This document shows positions 967 to 2,229 of a DNA stretch of 40,625 nt, piece after piece (the first letter of the stretch is position 1; each line of letters begins with the position of its first letter). The notes beneath the pieces are model-generated. The model worked only from the letters and a program-made list of their open reading frames with translations. It had not been told where the DNA came from and did not search any database. Source of the DNA: Escherichia phage Pipis; the sequence record PV714130; one strand, 5' to 3'. The position numbers and the translations under genes were made by a program.

Positions 967-1470
967 ATGGAACGTAATGCTAACGCATACTATGAGCTGC
1001 TGGCTGCAACCGTTGAGGCATTTATCGAGCGTATTCAGTACGACCACCTGACTCAAGATGATGACTACAGCGATGCGCTGCATGAGGTCGTAGACGGTCA
1101 GGTTCCACACTATTACCACGAGATTTTTACGGTGATGGCTGCTGATGGTATAGACCACGAATTCGAAGACTCTGGGATGATGCCTGAAACCAAGGACGTA
1201 ACGCGTATACTACAAGCTCGCATCTATGAGGCGCTTTATAACGATGTGTCTAATAGCTTGGATGTAGTCTGGTTTGAGGATGAAGAGGCAGACGAAGAGG
1301 ATGAATATTGGGTAGTTGACGCTAAAACAGGCGCAATAATTGTGCAAGCTGTAGCTCTTGAGGTCGCTACTGCATGTGCCAAGGTCAACTATGCAATAGG
1401 TCGCAACCTGAAGGTGGAAGACATCAATGATAACGTAGTGTTCGACCCTGCGGCTGAGGACTGCGAGTGA
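967..1470 (+). CDS. ocr: Ocr-like anti-restriction DNA mimic (gene 0.3 homolog) with C-terminal extension
   Basis: N-terminal ~120 aa align with recalled T7 Ocr ([43 protein letters not shown] vs T7 [43 protein letters not shown]) with an acidic tail; ~45 additional non-acidic residues follow. Confidence 0.8.
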
Positions 1471-1619
1471 TGGTAACTTATGGTCTCTGCCAGCACCACG
1501 TCGCCAACGCCCGGCTTATGGTCAAGACCGGGCGGTTAACCCATGATGAGACTATGCGTCTCCTGAAGGTGGTCTACAAGCGCCGCAAGCGTATTCACGA
1601 CAGTTTGCACGCTGAGTGA
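1470..1619 (+). CDS. hypothetical small protein (49 aa)
   Basis: ATG overlaps the Ocr stop (TGATG) suggesting translational coupling; basic C-terminus; below the ORF-track size cutoff. Confidence 0.3.
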   Translation: MVTYGLCQHHVANARLMVKTGRLTHDETMRLLKVVYKRRKRIHDSLHAE

Positions 1620-1771
1620 TAAACGAGAGGTCATCGACTGATAGGTGGCCTCAAAGATTACCACTTACATTAATAGGGGTTAACTATGAGTGTGGGATAT
1701 TGGGTATGCCTAGCGCCAGTTATCTGGATGATAGGCTATGGGTTATACGACTGTATTAAACGGAAATCACT

Positions 1772-1969
1772 ATGAGTCTTGCACTATTGATAGCCATAGG
1801 CTATGGACTTATCGCCTACGTGCTGGTGAGAGACATCAACAAAGCGCGTAAAGTCTACAAATTCAACTATGTACGTCTGGGCCGCTGGACTGTACGTCAA
1901 CCTAACGGACGATTCATGCGCAACTTAGCGAACGTCTGGGATATAGCAACTATTGGGAGCAAACTGTAA
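1772..1969 (+). CDS. hypothetical early protein (65 aa), hydrophobic N-terminus
   Basis: ORF in early region; start overlaps the stop of a 28 aa upstream ORF (1686-1775). Confidence 0.4.
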   Translation: MSLALLIAIGYGLIAYVLVRDINKARKVYKFNYVRLGRWTVRQPNGRFMRNLANVWDIATIGSKL

Positions 1970-2229
1970 TGAAAACCTTATACATTAACAAACCATCTAG
2001 CCATAGCCGTGTAGAGCAAATAGAGCGTGACATGTTCTTACATCGCCGCATGAGGGCTGAGGGCCATAAGTACGAACTGATGAGTATGGCGTTTGGTGGA
2101 CGACCGATCACTGACGATGGTAAACTTTTAGTCTCAGGCTGGAAGGCGATAGACCAACGGTCAACCATCAAGCACACGACTAACGGTGACTTCAGCCATC
2201 TCCACGCTAACCCACTGATATGCAAGTGA
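1969..2229 (+). CDS. hypothetical early protein (86 aa)
   Basis: ORF with TAATG overlap to the preceding ORF; occupies the place of T7 0.5-0.7; no kinase motifs. Confidence 0.45.
   Translation: MKTLYINKPSSHSRVEQIERDMFLHRRMRAEGHKYELMSMAFGGRPITDDGKLLVSGWKAIDQRSTIKHTTNGDFSHLHANPLICK

Follow-up and report, generated by a model that had tools for sequence, protein, structure and literature searches.

The early region of Escherichia phage Pipis: a likely near-minimal Kayfunavirus host-takeover segment that carries no kinase cassette

We analysed the early region of Escherichia phage Pipis within a stretch of 40,625 nucleotides (nt; sequence record PV714130, hereafter the window), concentrating on the interval between the Ocr-like gene 0.3 and the RNA polymerase gene, gene 1. 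This interval is likely to be the segment, expressed early (class I), with which a Kayfunavirus takes over its host; its configuration is near-minimal, and the kinase cassette is not carried. Its genes form two translationally coupled units, the first consisting of Ocr and a protein of 49 amino acids (aa) and the second of a 29-aa peptide, a 65-aa protein and the 86-aa protein gp0.38. To the right of the second unit lie a phage promoter and then gene 1. The elements concerned are given below.

967..1470, plus strand: gene 0.3, Ocr-like anti-restriction DNA mimic of 167 aa (Pfam PF08684 ocr, E=1.1e-29; phrog_2568, E=3e-53); left border of the interval
1470..1619, plus strand: 49-aa basic protein, the equivalent of K1F gp0.35 (open reading frame (ORF) from ATG; divergent relative of T7 gp0.4)
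1613..1668, plus strand: putative RNase III-type hairpin (fold, nhmmer match and homology to T7/T3 R0.5)
1686..1775, plus strand: 29-aa hydrophobic peptide (conserved ORF)
1772..1969, plus strand: 65-aa protein, the equivalent of K1F gp0.37 or '0.6' (T3-type gp0.6)
1969..2229, plus strand: 86-aa basic protein, the equivalent of K1F gp0.38 (conserved orphan)
2237..2255, plus strand: predicted phage-RNA-polymerase promoter (19-mer match), between gene 0.38 and gene 1
2327..5008, plus strand: gene 1, T7-type single-subunit RNA polymerase of 893 aa (ORF); right border of the interval

The identity of the phage was assessed from its DNA and gene order. Megablast with positions 900-2400 as the query matched 223 phage records. 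The top matches, Escherichia phages MirsaeidiM_Esher2 and 216Ecol046PP (PQ464628 and PP328844), were 98.9% identical over the entire query, and K1F DNA was ~93% identical over 94% of it; these phages all belong to Kayfunavirus. The first 200 aa of the gene 1 product were 98-100% identical to Kayfunavirus RNA polymerases and 49% identical to that of T7, and the plus-strand ORF map of the window contains a complete T7-type genome. Judged by DNA identity and gene order, the early region is that of a Kayfunavirus (K1F-like, Studiervirinae). The K1F early region (AM084414 / DQ111067) shares with it the order 0.3-0.35-(0.36)-0.37-0.38-1, the lack of gene 0.7 and the same hairpin after 0.35; gp0.35, gp0.37 (labelled '0.6' in one K1F record) and gp0.38 are 92%, 98% and 85% identical, respectively. 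K1F differs in the C-terminal part of Ocr (81% identity between the two proteins) and in possessing 0.36, a 55-aa two-helix membrane protein, where the window has the unrelated 29-aa ORF.

An initial annotation of the window had listed only small ORFs between Ocr and the RNA polymerase, of 49, 28, 65 and 86 aa. Four small ORFs are indeed all that the interval holds, and three of these lengths stand; the ORF given as 28 aa encodes 29. The overlapping stop and start codons that it had described can be read directly at three junctions: TGATG at 1468-1472 (Ocr stop at 1468-1470, ATG at 1470), ATGA at 1772-1775 (ATG at 1772, stop at 1773-1775) and TAATG at 1967-1971 (stop at 1967-1969, ATG at 1969). 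It had not mentioned two further elements: a hairpin of RNase III type, which falls in the gap at 1620-1685, and a phage promoter, which occupies 2237-2255.

The initial annotation had further stated that no gp0.7-type protein kinase is present, a claim that discovery of a split or frameshifted kinase gene would overturn. Neither an intact nor a decayed copy was detected. With T7 and T3 gp0.7 as queries, tblastn against the whole window returned nothing better than E=1.3; with the kinases of CR8, GW1 and ST37, the best match (E=0.08) lay inside gene 1 on the wrong strand. Within 1470-2330, these five kinases produced chance-level fragments only (E of at least 2.2) and no kinase-domain match. 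A hidden Markov model (HMM) of 81 gp0.7 kinases, spanning the full length of gp0.7, was then run with filters off over all 1,824 six-frame segments of the window. Its top match had an E of 2.9 (3.5 bits), whereas the positive controls (GW1, ST37 and T3) scored between 1e-71 and 1e-164. The gp0.7 families tested were phrog_2828 and phrog_15752, with the kinase motifs GxGHF..A, KVGFKK, FD.H..N and ITDPVS. No ORF of at least ~240 aa lies between gene 0.3 and gene 1, the longest plus-strand ORF in 1470-2327 being that of 86 aa, and the window contains no ORF above 200 aa outside the standard T7 core gene set. The likeness to the T7/T3 gp0.7 Ser/Thr kinase is limited to the genomic neighbourhood.

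There is next to no chance that a gp0.7 gene lies split, frameshifted or heavily decayed within 1470-2330. The sole hint of one was the label 'protein kinase' in the related records IME177, Vec13 and ZH4. In IME177 (MZ398247, 661-1164), however, this label is attached to the Ocr gene, the product of which is 96% identical to the Ocr of the window. Moreover, the six-frame search with the 81-kinase profile found nothing in the interval, tblastn with the five kinases was equally negative, the 760 nt are filled by four conserved ORFs and a hairpin, and the small proteins encoded there (29-86 aa) are too short for a kinase fold. By its sequence, the IME177 'protein kinase' is a misannotated Ocr that could mislead kinase surveys. 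Vec13 and ZH4 have this label beside gp0.35 and may share the error.

The kinase-less state itself is already known and is the majority state of the genus. K1F-type phages lacking gp0.7 have been present in GenBank since 2005, the K1F records cited above being examples, and the absence of the kinase matters little as stated. It has also been remarked on for CR44b (PMC4038870). How the kinase comes and goes was addressed with a synteny map in which 26 related loci were compared with the window.

These loci share a common layout. Ocr or an S-adenosyl-L-methionine (SAM) hydrolase is followed by gp0.35 and a hairpin, then by zero to four cassettes with a hairpin after each, and finally by a small membrane peptide, the 65-aa gp0.37, gp0.38 and gene 1. 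The window has zero extra cassettes between gp0.35 and the membrane peptide, and the single hairpin at 1613-1668. The earlier description of the region as the most variable part of the genome agrees with this mosaic of zero to four extra cassettes. The kinase carriers GW1 and ST37 (Kayfunaviruses) and CR8 (Caroctavirus) possess a short, kinase-domain-only form of 242-309 aa. In GW1, ST37, EFA-1 and CR8, the kinase is flanked by hairpins and lies just left of the block of membrane peptide, 0.37 and 0.38. EFA-1 and the window are collinear rightwards from the start of the hairpin (window positions 1611 to 2700, 93% identity). The left part of EFA-1, where the SAM hydrolase is followed by genes of 75 and 41 aa and then by the kinase between two hairpins, replaces Ocr and gp0.35. 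Homology between the window and its relatives breaks at window positions 1611-1624 in at least 10 loci and at 1686-1689 in the others. At the level of genome comparison, these data show the kinase to be one hairpin-bounded cassette, located in relatives at the very point of the window's single hairpin, and its absence to be a module difference rather than the result of gene decay. From the positions of the breakpoints we infer that such cassettes, the kinase included, have been exchanged by recombination at the conserved ~55-nt hairpins.

A GW1-type kinase (at least 80% identity) was found in ~44 records, against 223 with gp0.38; about four-fifths of the relatives would appear to lack the kinase cassette, as the window does. 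Furthermore, phages of this genus seem to have either gp0.35 or the kinase, but not both. Among the loci compared, a sample that is not phylogenetically independent, three kinase carriers had no gp0.35 and 20 gp0.35 carriers had no kinase. Across records, the counts for gp0.35 (178) and the kinase (44) together come suggestively close to that for gp0.38 (223), as totals and not as a record-by-record partition. T7 and CR8 differ in having both gp0.4 and a kinase.

Two proteins encountered in the related loci deserve mention. Salmonella phage ST37 (OQ860975, 2153-3082) encodes a 309-aa in-frame fusion of ~119 N-terminal residues of a T3-type SAM hydrolase with a gp0.7-type kinase domain. The fusion also occurs in ST35 and ST34, and the ST37 record labels it only 'S-adenosyl-L-methionine hydrolase'. 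In GA2A-type Kayfunaviruses, a 174-aa protein (phrog_11084, no Pfam match; 1138-1662 in the GA2A-type locus) replaces Ocr in the 0.3 slot; it is also present in four further related loci and is absent from the window. By eye, its N-terminus (LIGKGAFTKCY..RVILV) resembles the glycine loop of gp0.7 (LLGNGHFSAAY..RVIKV), but comparison of the protein with gp0.7 by hhalign gave a probability of 0.8%.

The hairpin at 1613-1668 contains an internal loop, folds with -22.4 kcal/mol (z=-3.1) and holds the stop codon of the 49-aa gene within its 5' arm. It aligns with the annotated R0.3, R0.5 and R1 sites of T3 and with the T7 0.4-0.5 spacer. An nhmmer model of T7/T3 RNase III hairpins scored it at E=8e-11 and also recovered four annotated T3 sites together with hairpins at the T7 early-site positions. 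We take the T7 hairpins, by position, to be R0.3, R0.5, R1, R1.1 and R1.3, the T7 record carrying no such annotation. With the early RNase III sites of T7 and T3 (R0.3, R0.5, R1 and R1.1) the hairpin shares a length of ~55 nt, the internal loop, a position right after a 0.4-type gene and the conserved arms AGTGAT.AAC...AGGTC and GTGGCC....GAT.A.CACT. Two further copies lie to the left of the interval.

884..940, plus strand: putative RNase III-type hairpin upstream of gene 0.3, the R0.3 equivalent (fold z=-3.95; nhmmer E=1.7e-11)
562-623, plus strand: a further putative RNase III-type hairpin copy (fold z=-3.68; nhmmer E=1.6e-8)

We therefore interpret 1613-1668 as a predicted RNase III-type processing site homologous to T7/T3 R0.5, cleavage being expected from that homology. 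Against this interpretation, Rfam holds no family for the early hairpins (a scan of 1-6000 returned nothing), and in phage ASO2B a WebGeSTer-based annotation describes the equivalent hairpins as 'rho-independent terminator'. It is nevertheless very unlikely that the element is an intrinsic terminator placed between two operons. The stem is not followed by a T-run, the sequence continuing ACATTAATAGGGG, and a terminator scan of 1-5400 found none on the plus strand. In addition, the hairpin, internal loop included, can be aligned with the RNase III sites annotated in T3 and with the R0.5 region of T7, and the very model that detects it recovers the known early sites. The ASO2B (MZ726794) annotation, which covers RNase III-type hairpins at 998-1033, 1798-1830 and 2236-2271, is probably wrong, because these hairpins lack a T-run and share homology with the processing sites of T7 and T3.

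In T7 and T3, R1 precedes gene 1; in the window the phage promoter is found there instead. No R1-type hairpin was detected in 2226-2330 (fold z=-0.8, no nhmmer match), nor did nhmmer find one upstream of gene 1 in the Kayfunavirus relatives.

Next, we consider the 49-aa protein, which belongs to phrog_5058, a family to which PHROG assigns no function. T7 gp0.4 also matches phrog_5058 (E=9e-5), both proteins match phrog_25044, and the 49-aa protein scored E=0.049 against the PHROG of gp0.4 (phrog_7202). Its exact sequence has a precomputed match to Pfam PF26807, Phage_T7_GP04 (E<=1e-5 class), as do 52/52 of its homologues and 43/43 homologues of T7 gp0.4. Alignment of the two families with hhalign gave a probability of 76-88% (E ~1e-5, 40 columns); reversed and unrelated controls gave 0.1%. 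The genomic setting is likewise that of T7 0.4, since the ATG starts on the last base of 0.3 and an R0.5-type hairpin comes next (1613-1668; T7 1428-1480). The lengths are similar (49 versus 51 aa), and the pattern YGL...V......V..G....M..LK..Y...K is shared. The proteins differ in that identity is ~33%, Trp28 of T7 Gp0.4 is replaced by His, one residue is inserted after the conserved Gly, and the window protein is basic rather than acidic. The ratio of non-synonymous to synonymous change (pN/pS) is 0.39. On these grounds the 49-aa protein belongs, as a divergent member, to the family of T7 gp0.4; one GenBank annotator had pointed out this resemblance earlier.

T7 Gp0.4 is an FtsZ inhibitor (Kiro et al. 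2013, as cited in PMC9372555). In the work of Dhanoa et al. 2022 (PMC9372555), infection by K1F yielded filaments with ~four Z-rings; the division block was ascribed to an unknown peptide, and the paper stated that K1F 'lacks 0.4'. A 2026 study (PMC13423816) reported that V15A, V22A, W28A, M32A, L35A and Y39A each abolish the toxicity of T7 Gp0.4, and that W28L and L35P also abolish FtsZ binding. In the hhalign register, V11, V18, M29, L32 and Y36 of the 49-aa protein correspond to T7 V15, V22, M32, L35 and Y39. Five of the six required residues are thus identical, and they are nearly invariant among the 53 family members.

It is fairly likely that the 49-aa protein inhibits FtsZ, and the role of the K1F division inhibitor is predicted for gp0.35. 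Binding of FtsZ by this protein would explain the multi-Z-ring filamentation reported in K1F infection. Several points weigh against the assignment. The T7 Gp0.4 W28 position is His in 50/53 gp0.35 family sequences, and W28 is essential in T7, both W28L and W28A being inactive (PMC13423816). The hhalign probability remains below 90%, pairwise tblastn alone gave E=1.2, and an FtsZ target is not guaranteed by family membership; the 2026 study cautions that shared function should not be assumed among homologues of fast-evolving phage proteins.

Such considerations would suit a Gp0.4 relative that has been retargeted and does not inhibit FtsZ, the K1F block then arising from gp0.38, the membrane pair or another early protein. 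The strongly basic character of the 49-aa protein (isoelectric point (pI) 10.3, against 4.7 for T7 Gp0.4) points the same way as the loss of Trp28. We consider this possible but rather unlikely. CR8 has a bona fide gp0.4 (58% identity to that of T7) that is likewise basic (pI 9.7), and the conservation of five FtsZ-interface residues out of six speaks for a retained target. Furthermore, K1F does inhibit Z-ring function (PMC9372555), and none of its other genes is similar to a known inhibitor of FtsZ.

The 65-aa protein, in turn, is a T3-type gp0.6 by profile and pairwise comparison. A profile search, which the initial annotation had proposed, placed it in phrog_2385 (E=5e-32), a PHROG that T3 gp0.6 also matches. 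Pairwise comparison with T3 gp0.6 gave 41% identity (E=3e-7), and hhalign with the T3 gp0.6 family gave 97.5% (E=7.5e-12). An N-terminal transmembrane helix (residues 3-19, Kyte-Doolittle maximum 2.52) precedes a basic C-terminal domain that bears the motif (W/F)TVR..NGRF. Members of the family were found in 496 phage records, K11-type Klebsiella phages included, and the pN/pS is 0.31. The length of 65 aa, the N-terminal helix, the TVR..NGRF core and the early location are shared by T3 gp0.6, K11 gp0.6A and EcoDS1 gp0.6; T3 0.6, however, lies upstream of 0.65 and 0.7, whereas the window gene lies between the 29-aa peptide gene and 0.38. T7 gp0.6A, an MreB inhibitor, falls in a different PHROG and showed no cross-match with the 65-aa protein. 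A literature search found no paper assigning a function to the T3-type gp0.6/gp0.37 family.

The same kind of search, likewise proposed for the 86-aa protein, revealed a conserved family but no match outside it. gp0.38 is encoded in 223 phage records, none of which (0/223) assigns it a function, and a profile search of 1.84 billion representatives returned 14 clusters only; homologues are largely limited to Kayfunavirus and a few relatives. The protein varies in length (86, 108, 130 or 139 aa) around a common C-terminal core, in which the motif T-(T/S)-x-G-D-F-x-H-L is invariant, and its gene is always directly upstream of gene 1. The core has a pN/pS of 0.27, the variable N-terminus one of 0.55. 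An AlphaFold2 (AF2) model built with distant homologues added reached a predicted local distance difference test (pLDDT) score of 80.7 and shows three helices and a less confident tail; on close homologues alone the score was 50 and the model useless. A sequence profile search of the PDB found nothing, and Foldseek with the model found nothing below E=1 in the PDB and only family members in BFVD.

Two candidate relationships of gp0.38 were rejected. The first was that it represents the detached C-terminal shut-off domain of gp0.7; comparison of its family with 76 such domains (T7 residues ~243-359) by hhalign gave a probability of 0.7%, and neither gp0.7 domain is related (<1%). The second was homology to T3 gp0.65, whose gene comes after T3 0.6 just as 0.38 comes after 0.37; it found no support (hhalign 3%, 15 columns). 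Among the phages compared, gp0.38 is confined to those that lack gp0.7 or retain no more of it than the kinase domain (K1F-type, GW1-type and CR8). It is conceivable, but quite unlikely, that the membrane peptide, the 65-aa protein and gp0.38 constitute a genus-specific host-takeover module supplying the function of the gp0.7 C-terminal shut-off domain.

The 29-aa peptide, MSVGYWVCLAPVIWMIGYGLYDCIKRKSL, is hydrophobic with a basic tail and probably a single-pass membrane peptide (17-residue Kyte-Doolittle maximum 1.60). Unrelated small membrane peptides occupy the same slot elsewhere, namely K1F gp0.36, CR8 gp0.705 and a 41-aa peptide of ST37. The initial annotation had called the small ORFs of the interval unrelated. 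This description holds for the orphan 29-aa and 86-aa products but not for the 49-aa and 65-aa proteins, given their gp0.4 and gp0.6 relationships. A Pfam copy lacking PF26807 gave zero matches for the four small ORFs, PADLOC (anti-defence/defence) gave zero matches for any small protein of the interval, and tblastn of the window with T7 gp0.5, T7 gp0.6A, T3 gp0.65 and K1F gp0.36 found none.

Homologues of the 49-, 29-, 65- and 86-aa ORFs are present in 178, 93, 496 and 223 phage records, respectively, and summed pN/pS values against relatives range from 0.27 to 0.55. Because of this conservation and these values, the four ORFs are more than chance, and by such evolutionary measures all of them are real genes under purifying selection. 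It is highly improbable that the small ORFs are chance frames in non-coding spacer or leader. The suspicion would fall on the 29-aa ORF especially: it is unannotated in many records (one annotation is PM129_020), has no match in PHROG or Pfam, and in phage 1RS is frameshifted and fused to an upstream GTG frame. A full-length match of 28-29 codons is nonetheless kept in 93 records at 52-100% identity, the pN/pS over 13 loci is 0.28 with mostly synonymous changes between close relatives, and a Shine-Dalgarno sequence (AGGGG) lies 8 nt upstream, in addition to the ATGA overlap with the next gene. The remaining three ORFs have pN/pS values of 0.27-0.39 and hundreds of homologues.

The predicted phage promoter at 2237-2255 reads TTAACTATCACTATAGGAC. 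The window contains 10 plus-strand matches to this 19-mer at <=3 mismatches, against 0.01 expected by chance, and in CR8, too, a promoter is predicted at this position before gene 1. The location directly upstream of gene 1 suggests positive autoregulation of the RNA polymerase gene. Plus-strand copies of the form T(A/T)AACTATCACTATAGG lie at 2237-2255, 5315, 6962, 8029, 17027, 20257, 21256, 25664, 33380 and 39642. T7 and T3 have R1 and no phage promoter directly upstream of the polymerase gene, unlike the window. The gene 1 leader (2256-2326) contains short direct repeats, AAGTGAAAGAC and GACTTTAAGT, each occurring twice, and the 12-mer AAGGTCTAAGAC at 2261-2272 recurs at 24-35, near the left end. 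Positions 2207-2253 resemble sequence near the far end of relatives' genomes (81-85% identity).

Taken together, we propose the following scheme for the interval. Host RNA polymerase would transcribe it rightwards from the early promoter region, where a sigma-70-like site lies at 421-450, and the early transcript would be cut at the hairpins at 562-623, 884-940 and 1613-1668, both steps by analogy with T7. Like T7 Gp0.4, the 49-aa protein would bind FtsZ and block division. The 29-aa and 65-aa products may be inner-membrane proteins whose basic parts lie in the cytoplasm, and gp0.38 may act as a small soluble effector. Host transcription could be shut off by a retained Gp2-type protein instead of gp0.7.

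7855..8031, plus strand: predicted Gp2-type inhibitor of host RNA polymerase (Pfam PF16857 RNA_pol_inhib, E=2.7e-20)

Its retention would allow host shut-off without need for gp0.7. Weighing against this scheme are the facts that the functions of the parts are carried over to this phage and to K1F from other systems, that the roles given to the 29-, 65- and 86-aa proteins are guesses, and that breakpoint positions are the only basis for recombination at the hairpins.

Elsewhere in the window, the homologue of K1F gp0.1 (35-248) is split, residues 1-50 and 52-71 matching in different frames around 185, and the corresponding ORF stops after 56 aa. The late genes are interrupted at 18288-18698 and 29055-29504 by two inserted ORFs for homing endonucleases of the HNH (HNH_3) type.

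Some annotation errors are worth fixing, namely the frequent omission of the 29-aa gene, although it is kept in 93 genomes, and the kinase label on the IME177 Ocr. For the family, exchange of hairpin-bounded cassettes at RNase III sites would provide a concrete mechanism for the mosaic structure of the early region. The gp0.4 assignment bears on which phages could be detected by CapRel(Ebc)-type defence, which senses Gp0.4-FtsZ. Above all, the published question of which K1F peptide blocks FtsZ (PMC9372555) now has a testable candidate in gp0.35; together with the picture of hairpin-bounded cassettes, the proposal that gp0.35 may be the missing K1F division inhibitor is the main addition made here.

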